Assembly: GCF_056712565.1 (NCBI RefSeq)
Contig: NZ_CM160072.1
DNA length: 64,000 nt
Reading direction: 5' to 3' (one strand)
Made by a program: the position numbers and the translations under genes. The notes beneath the pieces were generated by a model that worked only from the letters and a program-made list of their open reading frames with translations, did no database searches and was not told the origin of the DNA. Of the stretch, positions 32,347 to 59,835 are shown piece after piece. Numbering within the stretch: the stretch's first letter is position 1; the number at the start of each line of letters is the position of its first letter.

Positions 32347-32811
32347 ATGGAAAAGAAATTACCCCGCATTAAAGCGCTGCTAACCCCCGGCGAAGTGGCG
32401 AAACGCAGCGGTGTGGCGGTATCGGCGCTGCATTTCTATGAAAGCAAAGGGTTGATTACCAGTATCCGTAATAGCGGCAATCAGCGGCGATATAAACGTG
32501 ATGTGTTGCGATATGTCGCAATTATCAAAATTGCTCAGCGTATTGGCATTCCGCTCGCAACCATTCGTGAAGCGTTTGGCGTGTTGCCAGAAGGGCATAC
32601 GTTAAGTGCGAAAGAGTGGAAACAGCTTTCGTCCCAATGGCGAGAAGAGTTGGATCGGCGCATTCATACCTTAGTGGCGCTGCGTGACGAACTGGATGGA
32701 TGTATTGGTTGTGGCTGCCTTTCGCGCAGTGATTGCCCGTTGCGTAACCCGGGCGACCGATTAGGAGAAGAAGGTACCGGCGCACGCTTACTGGAAGATG
32801 AACAAAACTAA
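32347..32811 (+). CDS. soxR: redox-sensing MerR-family regulator SoxR
   Basis: 154 aa; [24 protein letters not shown]; [2Fe-2S] cysteine cluster [12 protein letters not shown]. Confidence 0.95.
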
Positions 32812-32840
32812 AGCGCCACAAGGGCGCTTTAGTTTGTTTT
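32810..32840 (+). terminator. soxR terminator stem-loop
   Basis: AAAGCGCC-ACAAG-GGCGCTTT followed by AGTTTGTTTT. Confidence 0.55.
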
Positions 32841-32955
32841 CCGGTCTTTGTCTTTCTCTCTATCCCGCTGGTACACAGGAGGGTTTCCCCCGACGTCAAC
32901 ACACCTCATTCGAGCACGTGGTGGAGGTTCCGGTTGGTGTTGATGCTTTAATTGT
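32815..32955 (-). ncRNA. ryjA: possible RyjA small RNA (position by synteny only)
   Basis: In K-12 a roughly 140-nt sRNA lies convergent to soxR just downstream of it; boundaries here are approximate and not supported by any motif I can read. Confidence 0.25.
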
Positions 32956-38661: not shown

Positions 38662-40622
<1,961 letters not shown>

Positions 40623-40699
40623 CACAGATTCTCCAGAGGTAATGTAGGGATTGTTTTAATTCCCGCTCCCTTATGGGAGAAGGTTAACGCTTGGGTAAC

Positions 40700-40905
40700 C
40701 CTTGCCGAATGTAGGCCGGATAAGGCGTTATACGCCGCATCCGGCAATCAATGCCTGATGCGACGCTGTCGCGTCTTATCAGGCCTACAGCCGTTGCCGA
40801 ATGTAGGCCGGATAAGGCGTTCACGCCGCATCCGGCAACCAGCGCCTGATGCGCCGCTGTCGCGTCTTATCAGGCCTACAAACCGTTACCGACTCGCATC
40901 CGGCA
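40700..40905. repeat. REP/BIME cluster: two tandem roughly 90-bp units of palindromic REP sequences between yjcH and acs
   Basis: Two near-identical units each containing GCCGGATAAGGCGTT...ACGCCGCATCCGGCA and TGCGACGCTGTCGCGTCTTATCAGGCCTAC palindromic cores. Confidence 0.85.
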
Positions 40906-40913
40906 ATTGTGGG

Positions 40914-42872
40914 TTACGATGGCATCGCGATGGCCTGCTTCTCTTCAAGCAGCTTCTCGACTACGCCAGGATCGGCAAGCGTCGAGGTATCGCCCAGGTT
41001 GCTGGTATCGCCCGCCGCAATTTTGCGCAGAATACGGCGCATAATTTTGCCGGAGCGGGTTTTAGGCAGGGAGTCGGTCCAGTGCAGCACGTCTGGCGTC
41101 GCCAGCGGGCCAATCTCTTTACGCACCCAGTTGCGGACTTCTGCGTACAGTTCTGGTGACGGTTCCTCCCCGTGATTAAGCGTGACGTAGGCGTAGATCG
41201 CCTGACCTTTAATATTGTGCGGAATACCGACCACAGCGGCTTCGGCAATTTTCGGATGCGCCACCAGCGCCGACTCAATCTCTGCCGTCCCCAGGCGGTG
41301 ACCGGAGACGTTCAGCACGTCGTCCACGCGCCCGGTGATCCAGTAATAGCCATCTTCATCGCGACGCGCGCCGTCGCCGCTGAAATACATATTTTTGAAG
41401 GTGGAGAAGTAGGTCTGCTCAAAACGTTCGTGATCGCCAAACAGAGTACGCGCCTGACCCGGCCAGGAGTCGGTGATCACCAGACTGCCTTCGGTGGCCC
41501 CCTCCAGCGGGTTACCTTCGTTATCGACCAGCGCTGGTTGCACGCCGAAGAACGGACGTGTTGCCGAACCGGCTTTCAGCTCGGTAGCGCCAGGCAGTGG
41601 CGTGATCATGAAACCGCCAGTTTCGGTCTGCCACCAGGTGTCGACCACCGGGCATTTCTCATTGCCGATCTTCTTCCAGTACCACTCCCACGCTTCCGGG
41701 TTAATTGGCTCGCCCACGGAACCGAGAATGCGCAGCGACGAACGGTCGGTGCCTTCGATCGCTTTATCGCCTTCCGCCATCAGCGCGCGAATCGCCGTGG
41801 GCGCGGTATAGAGAATATTGACCTGATGCTTGTCCACCACCTGCGCCATACGGGCAGGCGTCGGCCAGTTCGGTACGCCTTCAAACATCAGCGTGGTCGC
41901 GCCGCAGGCCAGCGGGCCATACAGCAAATAACTGTGTCCGGTAACCCAGCCCACATCGGCGGTGCACCAGTAGATGTCGCCCGGATGATAATCAAAGACA
42001 TATTTAAAGGTCAGCGCCGCGTACACCAGATAACCGCCGGTAGTGTGCAGCACGCCTTTTGGCTTACCGGTAGAACCGGAGGTATAGAGAATAAACAGCG
42101 GATCTTCGGCGTTCATCTCTTCCGCCTGGTGCTGATCGCTGGCTTGCTCAACCAGGTCGTGCCACCACAGGTCGCGCCCTTCCTGCCAGTCAATTTTTCC
42201 GCCAGTACGCTTCAGTACCACCACATGCTCTACGCTGGTGACGTTCGGGTTTTTCAGCGCGTCATCAACGTTTTTCTTCAGCGGAATACTACGCCCGGCA
42301 CGCACACCTTCGTCGGAAGTGATCACCAGTCGTGAACTGGAGTCGATAATGCGTCCGGCAACGGCTTCCGGCGAGAAGCCGCCGAAAATCACCGAATGTA
42401 CCGCGCCAATGCGGGCGCAGGCCAGCATCGCGACCGCGGCTTCCGGTACCATCGGCATATAAATCGCAACTACGTCACCTTTTTTAATGCCCAGTTCGAG
42501 CAGGGTATTGGCGAAGCGGCAGACGTCGCGGTGCAGCTCTTTATAGCTAATATGTTTGCTCTGGCTGGCGTCGTCGCCTTCCCAGATGATGGCGGTACGA
42601 TCGCCGTTTTCTTGCAGATGGCGGTCAAGGCAGTTTGCCGCCAGATTCAGCGTGCCGTCCTCGTACCATTTAATGGACACATTACCGGGGGCAAAGGAGG
42701 TGTTTTTCACCTTCTGGTACGGTGTGATCCAGTCGAGAATTTTTCCCTGTTCGCCCCAGAAGGTATCTGGTGCGTTAATAGATTGTTGATACATCGCCTC
42801 GTACTGCTGAGGGTTTATCAGGCAACGGTCTGCGATGTTGGCAGGAATGGTGTGTTTGTGAATTTGACTCAT
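40914..42872 (-). CDS. acs: acetyl-CoA synthetase
   Basis: 652 aa; [25 protein letters not shown]...; AMP-binding motif [11 protein letters not shown]. Confidence 0.97.
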
Positions 42873-49981: not shown

Positions 49982-51295
49982 ATGAAAAATATAAAATTCA
50001 GCCTGGCCTGGCAGATTCTGTTTGCTATGGTGCTGGGCATTCTCCTGGGAAGCTACCTGCACCACCATAGCGACAGCCGCGACTGGCTGGTCGTCAATTT
50101 GCTCTCTCCGGCGGGTGATATCTTCATCCATCTGATCAAAATGATTGTTGTGCCGATTGTGATCTCCACACTGGTGGTGGGTATCGCGGGTGTTGGTGAT
50201 GCCAAACAGCTCGGGCGTATTGGTGCGAAAACCATTATCTACTTCGAGGTGATCACCACCGTCGCCATCATTTTGGGGATCACTCTGGCGAACGTCTTCC
50301 AGCCCGGTGCCGGGGTGGATATGTCGCAGCTGGCGACCGTCGATATCTCGAAATATCAGAGCACTACGGAAGCGGTACAAAGCAGTTCCCACGGCATTAT
50401 GGGCACGATTTTGTCGCTGGTGCCGACGAACATCGTGGCGTCGATGGCGAAAGGCGAAATGCTGCCGATCATCTTCTTCTCGGTGCTGTTTGGTCTGGGG
50501 CTTTCATCCCTGCCCGCGACGCATCGTGAACCGCTGGTGACAGTTTTCCGCTCCATCTCTGAAACCATGTTTAAAGTGACTCACATGGTGATGCGTTATG
50601 CGCCGGTGGGTGTGTTTGCGCTGATTGCGGTGACGGTGGCTAACTTTGGTTTCTCGTCTCTGTGGCCACTGGCGAAACTGGTGCTGCTGGTGCATTTCGC
50701 CATTCTGTTCTTCGCGCTGGTAGTGCTGGGAATTGTGGCGCGCCTGTGCGGGTTAAGCGTCTGGATCCTGATTCGTATTCTGAAAGATGAGCTGATTCTG
50801 GCGTACTCCACTGCCAGCTCTGAAAGCGTGCTGCCGCGAATTATTGAGAAGATGGAAGCCTACGGAGCACCGGCGTCGATCACCAGTTTCGTGGTGCCGA
50901 CCGGTTACTCTTTTAACCTTGATGGTTCGACGCTGTATCAAAGTATTGCCGCTATTTTCATCGCTCAGCTGTATGGCATTGACCTGTCCATCTGGCAGGA
51001 AATCATTCTGGTGCTGACGCTGATGGTGACCTCGAAAGGGATTGCTGGCGTGCCGGGCGTGTCGTTTGTGGTGTTGCTGGCAACGCTGGGCAGCGTAGGG
51101 ATCCCGCTGGAAGGTCTGGCGTTTATTGCCGGTGTTGACCGTATCCTCGACATGGCGCGTACTGCGCTGAACGTGGTGGGTAATGCGCTGGCGGTGCTGG
51201 TGATTGCCAAATGGGAACACAAATTTGACCGTAAGAAAGCGCTGGCTTATGAGCGTGAAGTACTGGGCAAATTTGATAAAACTGCGGATCAGTAA
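49982..51295 (+). CDS. gltP: glutamate/aspartate:proton symporter
   Basis: 437 aa; MKNIKFSLAWQILFAMVLGILLG...; preceded by a roughly 340-bp AT-rich regulatory region. Confidence 0.95.
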   Translation: MKNIKFSLAWQILFAMVLGILLGSYLHHHSDSRDWLVVNLLSPAGDIFIHLIKMIVVPIVISTLVVGIAGVGDAKQLGRIGAKTIIYFEVITTVAIILGITLANVFQPGAGVDMSQLATVDISKYQSTTEAVQSSSHGIMGTILSLVPTNIVASMAKGEMLPIIFFSVLFGLGLSSLPATHREPLVTVFRSISETMFKVTHMVMRYAPVGVFALIAVTVANFGFSSLWPLAKLVLLVHFAILFFALVVLGIVARLCGLSVWILIRILKDELILAYSTASSESVLPRIIEKMEAYGAPASITSFVVPTGYSFNLDGSTLYQSIAAIFIAQLYGIDLSIWQEIILVLTLMVTSKGIAGVPGVSFVVLLATLGSVGIPLEGLAFIAGVDRILDMARTALNVVGNALAVLVIAKWEHKFDRKKALAYEREVLGKFDKTADQ

Positions 51296-51369
51296 TTGAA
51301 GATTGCCGGGGGGATATCCACCCGGCAATGTGTGGATGCCTGACTGAGTAATAGCCTGATGTAGCGTGA

Positions 51370-51441
51370 TTTTTGTAGGTCGGATAAGGCGTTTACGCCG
51401 CATCCGACATCAATGCCTGATGCGACGTTTGCTGCGCCTAC
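51370..51441. repeat. REP element(s) between gltP and yjcO
   Basis: GTAGGTCGGATAAGGCGTTTACGCCGCATCCGACATCAATGCCTGATGCGACG, same REP family as at 40700-40905. Confidence 0.75.
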
Positions 51442-51442
51442 C

Positions 51443-52132
51443 TTAACCGTTAGTTAATTTTTCAAACTCTTCACAACCGGTATCAAATCCTTCCATACAG
51501 CTCAGATTCAACCAGTGCAGCGCCTTTTGTTTATTCTTCTCGATAAAACCCTCTTCACCGTTTAAGAACATCATTCCCGCCCAGTATTCGGAATAACCGG
51601 TTCGGGAAATCGCGGAGCTACGCTTGAAATACCAGGTTGCTTTGTCATCGTCGGCCTTAATGCCCACGCCGTTGGCGTAAATCAAACCAAGCAGCATTTG
51701 GGCATCGACGGCAGAGTCGTTCTCCAGATCTTCCGAGGCGTTTTCTAACAGCGAAATCGCCTTTGGATAATCCGGTTTACCCGCTTGCGTATTTACCAGA
51801 ATATGCGCCAGCGTTACTTCACCTTCTTTACTGCCCGCTTGCGCTGCTTTCTCGGCAAGCACTTTTGCTTGTGGATAGTCCAGACTGACCGGATTGGTGA
51901 TTTTGATCTGCGCCAACAGCGCACAGGCATCGGCATCACCGCTGTCGGCGGCTTTCTGTGCCCAATATTCGGCTTTGCTCAAATCGCCGGAGCTAAACCA
52001 GCTGTCGGCAAGAAAATATTGTGCGCGTCGGTCTCCGGCCTCTGCTGCCTTTAAATACTGGCTGCCAGGCTCGGAGTCGTTCGCGTGGGCAAAGAATGTC
52101 AAAAACAACATCAAAGTGATAATTTTTTTCAT
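51443..52132 (-). CDS. yjcO: Sel1-repeat lipoprotein YjcO
   Basis: ORF-track ORF 51443-52186 trimmed to ATG at 52132 (MKKIITLMLFLTFFAHA signal); 229 aa. Confidence 0.85.
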   Translation of the reverse strand: MKKIITLMLFLTFFAHANDSEPGSQYLKAAEAGDRRAQYFLADSWFSSGDLSKAEYWAQKAADSGDADACALLAQIKITNPVSLDYPQAKVLAEKAAQAGSKEGEVTLAHILVNTQAGKPDYPKAISLLENASEDLENDSAVDAQMLLGLIYANGVGIKADDDKATWYFKRSSAISRTGYSEYWAGMMFLNGEEGFIEKNKQKALHWLNLSCMEGFDTGCEEFEKLTNG

Positions 52133-52242
52133 TTTGATAATGAAGTTTGGTAGGGGAGAGACAGTATAAAGTGTTCGGGTGGACAAAAAAACAACTGTAA
52201 AAAGACCTGAAAGCAGAATGAATTAATGCAATGTCAGGTTTT

Positions 52243-57687: not shown

Positions 57688-59835
57688 TTACGCCAGTGCC
57701 GCTTCGCGCAGGCGAGTTTTCAACTTGTTGTACTCGTCAATCACGTACTGCTCGGCGGCGCGCTGATCGGCGATCGGCTCGACGCGCACGGCGCAGTATT
57801 TGTATTCCGGCGTTTTCGTAATCGGGCTTAAGTTTTCGGTCACCAGCTCGTTACAGGCACCAATCCACCACTGGTAGGTCATGTAAATCGCCCCTTTGTT
57901 CGGACGATCGCTGACCTGCGCACGGGTGATAATTTTGCCTTTACGCGAGTGCACCCAAACCAATGCCTCATCTTCAATACCCAGACGTTTGGCGTCTTCG
58001 GTATTGATTTGTGCGTAGCCAGGTTCATCAGCCAGCGCCGCCAGTGCCGCACAGTTACCGGTCATCGAACGGCAAGAGTAGTGACCAACTTCACGCACCG
58101 TTGACAGTACCATCGGGTACTCGTCGGTGAGTTTGTCGATTGGCGCTACCCAGTCGCAGGTGAAGAACTGCGCCAGACCGTTCGGGGTATCAAACTTCTC
58201 TTTAAACAGATAAGAAGTCCCCTGATCGGCATCTGAAGTATCGCGGCAAGGCCACTGAATGAAGCCCAGTTCGCCCATTTTCTCGTAAGTCGCACCGTAG
58301 AAATCCGGGCACAGATGACGCAACTCGTCCCAGATCTCCTGGGTGTTGTTGTAGTGCATCGGATAACCCATACGAGTGGCAATTTCACTGATGATTTGCC
58401 AGTCCGTTTTCAGATCCCACTTCGGCTCAACCGCCTTGAAGAAACGCTGGAAGCCACGGTCAGCCGCAGTAAACACGCCTTCATGCTCGCCCCACGACGT
58501 TGACGGTAAAATGACATCCGCCGCCGACGCGGTTTTGGTCATAAAGATGTCCTGAACGATAACCAGTTCCAGATCTTCAAAGGCTTTACGTACTGCCGAC
58601 AGTTCCGCGTCAGTTTGCAGCGGATCTTCGCCCATAATGTACGCCGCTCTCACTTCACCATGCGCCACGCGGTGCGGCAGCTCGCTGATACGATAACCGG
58701 TATGAGCAGGCAGGCTTTCCACGCCCCAGGCTTTGGCAAATTTCTCGCGGTTAGCCGGATCTTTCACGTACTGATAGCCCGGATACGTATCCGGCAGCGC
58801 GCCCATATCGCAGGCACCCTGCACGTTGTTCTGACCACGAACCGGGTTTACACCCGCATGTGGCTTACCGAGGTTACCGGTCAGCATCGCGAGGCTGGTC
58901 AGAGAACGCACGGTTTCCACGCCCTGATAGAACTGGGTTACCCCCATGCCCCACAGGATGGCGGCGCTTTCCGCCTGGGCATACATCCGCGCCGCCTGAC
59001 GAATCTCACTGGCGCTGACGCCGGTGATATCTTCAACCGACTCCGGCGTGTAGCCTTCAACGATTTTACGATACTCTTCAAAGCCTTCTGTACGGGAAGC
59101 GACGAACGCTTTGTCGTACAGATTTTCTTCAATAATGACATGGCCCATCGCATTCAACAGCGCGATGTTCGAGCCGTTTTTCAATGCAATGTGCATGTCA
59201 GCAATGCGCGCGGTTTCAATTTTACGCGGATCGCAGACGATAATTTTCGCCCCGTTACGTTTAGCGTTAATTACGTGATTCGCCACGATTGGGTGGGAAT
59301 CCGCCGGGTTATACCCGAAAACGAACACTAAATCGGTATTATCAATTTCGTTAATAGCATTGCTCATTGCGCCATTACCGACCGATTGGTGCAGACCTGC
59401 AACCGATGGGCCGTGTCAGACACGAGCGCAGCAGTCAACGTTATTGGTACCAATAACGGCGCGCGCAAATTTTTGCATTACATAGTTGGTTTCGTTACCC
59501 GTACCGCGCGAGGAGCCGGTCGTCTGGATGGCATCCGGACCGTACTTCTCTTTGATGGCGCTCAGGCGCTCGGCAACGTAATTCAGTGCCTCATCCCAGG
59601 AAACAGGTTCGAGTTTGCCGCCACGCTGGCGACGGATCATGGGGGTTTTCAGGCGCGGGGTCAGGATCTGGGTATCGTTAATGAAGTCCCAGCCATAATA
59701 ACCCTTCAGACACAGGGTACCCTGGTTGGTTTTCCCCTGCGCTGCCTCCGCCCGGACGATTTTGCCGTTATCGACGACCAGGTTGATTTTGCAACCTGAT
59801 GCGCAATAGGGGCAAACCGTGACGACTTTTTTCAT
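57688..59835 (-). CDS. fdhF: formate dehydrogenase H (selenocysteine- and molybdopterin-containing), with in-frame UGA Sec codon at 59416-59418
   Basis: ORF-track ORFs 59416-59835 (139 aa, ...VDCCARV) and 57688-59367 are in the same frame, separated only by TGA; joined product is 715 aa reading ...CARV-U-HGPSV...; N-terminal 4Fe-4S motif CPYCASGC. Confidence 0.95.
59375..59418 (-). other. UGA(Sec140) codon and immediately downstream SECIS region of fdhF mRNA
   Basis: Position of the in-frame TGA read directly; SECIS extent (about 40 nt 3' of the UGA) is placed from knowledge of fdhF, not folded here. Confidence 0.7.

Follow-up and report, generated by a model that had tools for sequence, protein, structure and literature searches.

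A two-unit BIME-2 in the acs-yjcH spacer of Escherichia coli ATCC 11775 and its possible influence upon the acs-yjcH-actP operon

The untranslated spacer between acs and yjcH raises a twofold question: what kind of element forms the two near-identical units found there, and does it influence the expression of the operon in which it lies? We addressed both parts in a stretch of 64,000 nucleotides (the window), whose host strain is E. coli ATCC 11775 (DSM 30083), to the chromosome of which it is 100% identical. The first part can be answered with near certainty. The spacer carries a BIME-2 consisting of two 91-nt Z2/Y units, which is an ordinary and already known kind of element. The second part is a matter of weighing several explanations against the anatomy of the array, its distribution among strains and species, and its position within the operon.

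Repeat anatomy of the spacer

Tandem Repeats Finder (TRF) reported a single array with a period of 91, 2.1 copies, 89% matches, and a score of 322, and a gapless repeat search returned two direct-repeat blocks located 91–92 nt apart (93% and 97% identity), together with inverted repeats that are dense both within and between the two units. An earlier note on this DNA had described two near-identical, REP-rich units of about 90 bp in the yjcH-acs spacer, which both searches confirm. The array occupies 196 nt of the 291-nt spacer that extends from the acs stop codon to the yjcH start codon (Table 1). When the REP core pattern GCCKGATGCGNCG was scanned with at most one mismatch, 8 matches were obtained in the 64-kb window, compared to a shuffle mean of 1.15, and none of 100 shuffles reached 8. 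Six of the eight matches fall inside the array and a second element located in the gltP-yjcO spacer. The segment at 2483-2494 was considered as a further REP and rejected, as its 12 nt match by chance and are not surrounded by a palindrome.

Two hallmarks of REPs are a GTAG 5' to the stem foot and non-complementary bases within the stem (PMC3333891). Both are evident here, as all four elements of the array start with GTAGGCC on their own strand and have mismatches inside every predicted stem. They are imperfect palindromes of 34–36 nt with the capacity to form stem-loops, they are extragenic, being confined to the spacer that separates the acs stop from the yjcH start, and the REP part of the query matches a median of at least 38 places per E. 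coli genome. BIME-2 are defined by z2 and y elements arranged as REP/iREP with a short S linker, in tandem copies whose number is variable between strains (PMC3333891). In the spacer, each unit comprises one Y and one Z2 REP in opposite orientation, the z2 and y elements form inverse REP/iREP pairs joined by a short S linker, the 7-nt and 14-nt linkers are regular, and the units are tandem, numbering 2.1 here and 1, 3, or 4 at this locus in other E. coli. The assignment of Y and Z2 is further backed by an alignment of the units to Rfam RF02564, which is a Y-Z2 model. A CRISPR array can be rejected, since the entire 91-nt unit recurs, linkers and palindromes together, and these imperfect palindromes are accompanied by no unique spacers. 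On both points, the REP/BIME identity (as judged by the Y/Z2 anatomy, the GTAG, and the linkers) and the dismissal of CRISPR, the view taken in the earlier note is borne out.

Read in the sense of acs mRNA, the spacer consists of 34 nt, Z2 (36 nt), 7 nt, Y (34 nt), 14 nt, Z2 (36 nt), 7 nt, Y (35 nt), and a distal part of 88 nt. The Y REPs are GTAG-first on the plus strand, and the yjcH-proximal one is a head-first iREP in acs mRNA. The S linker is 6 nt shorter than that of naRNA4 in the Rfam alignment, and the 14-nt tail-to-tail spacing is found again in alleles of three and four units. When folded singly in acs-sense RNA, the four REPs yield -17 to -22 kcal/mol with z scores of -3.0 to -5.6, the acs-proximal Z2 having one more stem mismatch than the yjcH-proximal Z2, and the entire spacer folds to -146.7 kcal/mol (z -7.5). 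Close to the acs stop lies the head of a further Y REP, a 13-nt remnant that has no significant fold (-6 kcal/mol, z -0.6). The distal 88 nt contain a small hairpin (40662-40683, -12.3 kcal/mol) and an A-rich tract, both located just upstream of the yjcH ribosome-binding site, where the Shine-Dalgarno sequence GGAG is found at 40631-40634.

Table 1. Genes, REPs, and spacer segments of the acs-yjcH and gltP-yjcO loci, in window coordinates.
Feature	Position	Strand	Evidence or remark
acs (acetate--CoA ligase), upstream gene of operon	40914-42872	-	NCBIfam NF001208, 1118 bits; RefSeq
yjcH (DUF485 membrane protein), downstream of array	40308-40622	-	RefSeq annotation
actP (cation/acetate symporter), last gene of operon	38662-40311	-	NCBIfam TIGR02711, 1143.8 bits
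acs stop codon	40914-40916	-	
yjcH start codon	40620-40622	-	
Whole tandem array (BIME-2)	40697-40892	.	TRF and direct repeats, 93-97%
Y REP head remnant TTGCCGGATGCG, 13 nt, 8 nt past acs stop	40895-40907	-	Third copy of a direct repeat
Z2 REP, acs-proximal unit	40844-40879	-	-17.0 kcal/mol, z -3.0
Y REP, acs-proximal unit	40803-40836	+	-21.9 kcal/mol, z -4.1
Tail-to-tail linker between units, 14 nt	40789-40802	.	Architecture analysis
Z2 REP, yjcH-proximal unit, GTAG-first in acs mRNA	40753-40788	-	-21.9 kcal/mol, z -5.6
Short (S) head-to-head linker AATCAAT, 7 nt	40746-40752	.	Architecture analysis
Y REP, yjcH-proximal unit, GTAGGCCGGATAAGGCGTTATACGCCGCATCCGGC	40711-40745	+	-22.1 kcal/mol in acs-sense RNA, z -5.2
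Distal non-REP part of spacer, 88 nt	40623-40710	-	Present unchanged in every BIME allele examined
gltP	49982-51295	+	NF008440, 905.6 bits; convergent with yjcO
Y REP in gltP-yjcO spacer	51375-51408	+	94% over 32 nt to Y at 40803 (blastn)
Decayed Z2 REP, head GCCTGATGCGACG and tail CCTAC	51415-51441	-	Alignment
yjcO	51443-52186	-	Convergent with gltP

The related REP that had been mentioned after gltP is real as well. It belongs to the same family and consists of one intact Y REP and one decayed Z2 REP. In the former, an outer-stem change is compensated (GGTCGGA...TCCGACA), and the REP folds to -18.8 kcal/mol (z -4.6). Of the latter, the head (51415-51427) and the CCTAC tail (51437-51441) persist, whereas the middle or 3' arm has been lost; it stops 1 nt short of the yjcO stop codon (51443-51445) and yields no fold (-2.2 kcal/mol, z +0.9). 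The K-12 "gltP-yjcO partial BIME" has served as a substrate of TnpA_REP (RayT), by which it is cleaved in vitro (PMC3333891). The gltP-yjcO spacer is length-polymorphic in E. coli, with a 501-bp query covering from 430 to 997 bp in other genomes, and K-12-like strains carry a BIME array in this spacer that is much longer than that of the window. A separate plus-strand hairpin at 51301-51330 (-19.4 kcal/mol, z -3.4), 6 nt past the gltP stop, has no U-tract and is not a REP.

Variation between lineages and species

For allele comparison, the acs-yjcH spacer was taken from representative E. coli genomes. Its length is 199 nt with one unit in MG1655, 291 nt with two units in the window, 382-394 nt with three units in ST1193, ATCC 25922, FEA3, and FCI5, and 472 nt with four units in HSP60 and SCU-482. 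Two other alleles have a different content: that of ST131 (209 nt) combines a truncated REP, a divergent REP, and a Y, and that of elppa4 (226 nt) combines a single Y, 9 nt past the acs stop, with an ERIC-like element. Alleles of one, two, three, and four units exhibit identical spacing and an unchanged distal 88 nt, which argues that the array changes by whole units. Allele frequencies were estimated from 86 E. coli chromosomes, obtained as two evenly spaced samples of ranked matches with the window's own record excluded. One unit is found in approximately 70% of these, two units in 2%, three in 5%, four in 2%, the ST131-type allele in 14%, and the ERIC-type allele in 7%, all of them approximate values for a collection that is biased.

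Isolates within a lineage have a common allele, as seen among several O157:H7 strains and among several strains with an ST131-type span, so the locus varies between lineages and is not hypermutable. A match was returned by 5,425 of the 5,426 E. coli genomes, and gene order at the locus is the same in all E. coli records and all enterobacterial loci examined. The earlier note had considered these repeats to be frequent junctions of rearrangement and had proposed that REP copy number be compared across strains. The comparison reveals one to four units at acs-yjcH, and the idea of rearrangement holds for unit number and element content, both of which vary, whereas gene order is constant everywhere examined.

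The two alleles of different content merit separate description. In the ST131 strain 5506 (extracted locus 624-832), the outer stems of the REPs are TCGGA/TCCGA, not CCGGA/TCCGG. The gltP-yjcO Y REP of the window has the same compensated variant, which suggests that REP copies from different loci have undergone exchange or descend from a common ancestor. In the ERIC-type allele (elppa4, extracted locus 624-849), the single Y is accompanied by an ERIC/IRU-like element, an arrangement also present in Citrobacter, and its REP is near enough to the acs stop (≤15 nt) for a published translational-stalling rule to apply.

To place the locus in a broader context, species-representative genomes were scanned with a conserved Acs C-terminus pattern, yielding 50 loci, of which 47 have readable acs-yjcH synteny. 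The spacers at these loci range from 77 to 294 nt, and E. coli-type Y/Z2 REPs are found only in Escherichia. E. albertii has a single, K-12-like unit, and E. whittamii as well as the divergent "E. coli SCPM-O-B-8794" have only a single Y that starts 10 nt past the acs stop. A complete Y is present at the position of the 13-nt remnant in both of these genomes, and likewise in the elppa4-type allele, which suggests that insertion or recombination brought a BIME-2 unit into an older, ancestral single Y, whose head would be the remnant. Citrobacter has the genus's own REP type at the same position, together with an ERIC-like element. No REP was found in the acs-yjcH spacer at the species-representative loci of Enterobacter, Leclercia, and Lelliottia; the REP-free spacers of Enterobacter and Leclercia measure 77-140 nt, and those of some genera are bare at 77-88 nt. 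Since repeats of differing types, or none, occupy the spacer in different genera, it is a recurrent landing place for small repeats, within which the BIME-2 is both recent and dispensable.

The segment homologous to the distal 88 nt is conserved across the Enterobacteriaceae. In Enterobacter, Leclercia, and Lelliottia, the counterpart of the weak E. coli hairpin at 40662-40683 is a strong, perfect 10-bp hairpin, CCCTCTCCCC-ATA-GGGGAGAGGG, preceded by CCCTCACCCTAA. It was considered as an intrinsic terminator and rejected, as it has no U-tract; we take it to resemble the GC-rich repeats of the "box C" type.

Given such polymorphism, a purely neutral or selfish status of the array is a serious rival to any functional explanation. 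The array would then be a non-autonomous BIME-2 that is amplified by RayT or by recombination and tolerated in the spacer, with no selected effect upon the operon. The range of alleles at this highly polymorphic site, including the ST131-type and ERIC-type alleles, is consistent with this, as are the lack of E. coli-type REPs at the site outside Escherichia, the bare spacers of some genera, the resemblance of the remnant to an insertion or recombination scar, and the visible decay of the gltP-yjcO element. A candidate enzyme is encoded as well: an intact rayT (REP-associated tyrosine transposase) lies next to yafL in the host genome, outside the window (NZ_CP033092.2, 3730659-3731156), and rayT is detectable in 3,574 of the 5,426 complete E. 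coli genomes; changes in unit number need not involve RayT. However, the four acs-yjcH REPs are intact, with their stems kept and GTAG present, and Citrobacter has independently acquired a REP of its own type directly past the acs stop. Furthermore, a comparable array, REP325, measurably affects its operon, and a stable hairpin array in an mRNA likely has some effect, whether selected or not. On these grounds, we consider a neutral or selfish status to be possible, if somewhat unlikely.

Position within the operon and candidate effects on expression

The array had previously been placed downstream of yjcH, which is wrong. As acs, yjcH, and actP are all encoded on the minus strand, the array is situated downstream of acs and upstream of yjcH, within the acs-yjcH-actP operon. 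The transcript with a 3' side open to protection is consequently that of acs, not yjcH. Co-transcription of the three genes, starting at the acs promoters, has been reported (Gimenez 2003, as cited in PMC6036698), and they have been handled as one operon (PMC6498577). An intrinsic terminator was rejected, as a simple scan of the minus strand found no hairpin with a U-tract in 40623-40913. A simple scan likewise found no promoter-like site on the minus strand within the spacer, which is weak negative evidence and gives no sign of an internal yjcH promoter. With neither an intrinsic terminator nor a promoter-like site in the spacer, yjcH and actP probably depend on read-through across the array, and hence upon transcription crossing four stable hairpins.

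A useful precedent is REP325, a six-unit Y-Z2 array located between yjdM and yjdN, which form one operon. When it is deleted, yjdM mRNA declines and that of yjdN increases approximately 8-fold, the array stabilizes the mRNA of the upstream gene, termination is partly Rho-dependent, and, genome-wide, tandem gene pairs with a REP have higher upstream/downstream ratios (bioRxiv 10.64898/2026.03.23.713779). By analogy, the acs-yjcH array may both stabilize acs mRNA, as a barrier to 3' exonucleases, and partially attenuate yjcH-actP. The stabilization of upstream transcripts suggested in the earlier note is thus likely, going by what has been published for other REPs. We judge this dual role to be the most likely, because the array shares its REP types and its intra-operon position with REP325, and we regard some effect of this kind as probable.

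Mechanistically, transcription from the acs promoters would cross the array, whereupon the four REPs would fold into stable RNA hairpins. These would stop 3'-to-5' exonucleases, and in transcripts that have been processed or terminated the acs portion would be longer-lived. Part of transcription would also end within the long, untranslated, and structured spacer before reaching yjcH-actP, presumably in a partly Rho-dependent manner given that no intrinsic terminator is present. Because the array is intercistronic, this attenuation of yjcH-actP would matter as much as stabilization of the 3' end, and the net result would be a raised ratio of acs to yjcH-actP expression. The array itself would gain or lose whole 91-nt units via slippage, unequal recombination, or RayT. 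Such growth and shrinkage would be the mark of a lineage-variable tuning element and not of an essential signal. The REP325 study also describes REP effects as context-dependent and widely variable (bioRxiv 10.64898/2026.03.23.713779). As a counterpoint, most sampled E. coli have a single unit, a minority have an ERIC-like element in its place, and Enterobacter and Leclercia are REP-free; the array is evolutionarily dispensable, and its pattern of occurrence is equally compatible with a tuning element and with a neutral or selfish one.

It is conceivable that the array instead acts upon the translation of acs. REPs located ≤15 nt away from the stop codon upstream of them reduce translation (Liang, Rudd and Deutscher 2015, summarised in PMC12306157), and a REP near the acs stop could stall terminating ribosomes, leading to mRNA cleavage and the involvement of tmRNA, which would make the array a translational down-regulator of acs. 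However, the first intact REP of the window lies 35 nt past the acs stop, and only the 13-nt remnant, with its lack of a significant hairpin, falls within the 15-nt limit. The rule could fit the single-Y alleles of the elppa4 type and of E. whittamii, in which the Y is positioned 9-10 nt past the stop, but not the allele of the window, for which we find this explanation very unlikely.

A further explanation would assign the array a role mainly at the DNA level, as a strong, transcription-independent gyrase site that handles supercoiling between acs, which is strongly induced, and its neighbors. BIME-2 show a significant enrichment of gyrase cleavage sites, in y more than in z2, and the cleavage signal of BIME-2 goes up, not down, when transcription is blocked (PMC6379681). 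With its two canonical y REPs, the acs-yjcH array would be a suitable candidate. Conversely, cleavage sites occur in only a subset of BIME-2, with acs-yjcH not among the named examples (PMC6379681), and alleles with one unit or without REPs are common. Moreover, a role at the DNA level does not exclude one at the RNA level. It is plausible that the Y REPs are binding and cleavage sites of DNA gyrase, which would be compatible with a role in RNA, whereas a mainly DNA-level function seems improbable.

Returning to the proposed dual role in acs mRNA stabilization and yjcH-actP attenuation, one extension concerns the number of units. This number, from one to four, or none in the ERIC-type allele, might serve as a heritable, lineage-specific dial on the ratio of acetyl-CoA synthetase to ActP. 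We consider such a dial doubtful. If true, E. coli lineages would differ in acetate scavenging and in the acetate switch with no change of coding sequence or promoter. The tuning of acs:actP between lineages by unit number is the only mildly novel possibility here. The literature already covers REP/BIME-2 elements well, including the variation in their copy number and the roles proposed for them, and in K-12 both elements have counterparts within the known REP inventory; the discovery value is small. Differences in unit number are worth knowing when comparing acetate metabolism between strains or when engineering the operon.

Comparison with REP325, naRNA4, and other REP elements

Rfam RF02564 (naRNA4), a model built on the Y-Z2 pair of REP325, matches both acs-yjcH units on the plus strand with 76.9 and 73.8 bits, exceeding its gathering score of 59.5. 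Taken at face value, the units could be genes for naRNA4-like nucleoid-associated noncoding RNAs that would act with HU to condense the chromosome. The orientation argues otherwise. The scoring strand is antisense to acs-yjcH-actP, whereas the matches at REP325 are sense to its operon, and the operon-sense minus strand of the acs-yjcH units reaches only 55.1 and 47.7 bits, below the gathering score. A simple scan also found no promoter-like site on the plus strand of the spacer. In effect, RF02564 describes a Y-Z2 pair that any BIME-2 matches, so the matches corroborate the REP types and are no sign of an sRNA gene. Furthermore, a 2026 study whose authors include one from the original naRNA4 work found neither REP325 nor naRNA4 to compact the nucleoid measurably (bioRxiv 10.64898/2026.03.23.713779). 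Based upon the antisense strand and this re-evaluation, we reject a naRNA4 gene as a functional explanation, as it is barely credible here, and the matches should not be annotated as sRNA genes. Two other gathering-level Rfam matches in the window, both on the minus strand and both expected for this region, are the sRNA sraL at 32804-32944 (153 bits) and SECIS_2, the bacterial selenocysteine insertion sequence, at 59369-59423 (87 bits).

The resemblance to REP325 of E. coli K-12 resides in the REP types, the tandem units, and the location between two co-oriented genes of one operon. REP325 differs in its size, with six units of 100 nt compared to two of 91-92 nt at acs-yjcH, and in its orientation. 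Its mRNA carries pairs with Y first and Z2 second, whereas acs mRNA carries the complementary arrangement, and the naRNA4-sense strand is sense to yjdMN and antisense to the acs operon.

Similar parallels can be drawn with the REP of malE-malF, whose intercistronic hairpins are said to protect the upstream segment from 3' exonucleases and to skew expression toward the upstream gene; single REP stabilizers of this kind, whether intercistronic or at the 3' end, are the subject of a review by Higgins et al. 1988 (listed in PMC12306157). Both loci place REP hairpins between the cistrons of an operon, with a comparable role at acs-yjcH being putative and based upon this analogy. They are distinct in composition, since the malE-malF type is a simple REP pair and acs-yjcH has four REPs in a BIME-2. 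Like the substrates of REPtrons and RayT and REPIN-type doublets, the acs-yjcH REPs possess GTAG, the stem mismatch for RayT binding, and the CT dinucleotides for cleavage, but the array lies at a great distance from rayT and does not belong to a REPtron. When compared with BIME-2 generally, there is no difference of substance. The array is small and has its own linkers, as is normal for BIME-2, and it is alike in its alternating inverted Y and Z2 REPs, its 7-nt head-to-head and 14-nt flanking linkers, and a unit number that varies from strain to strain.
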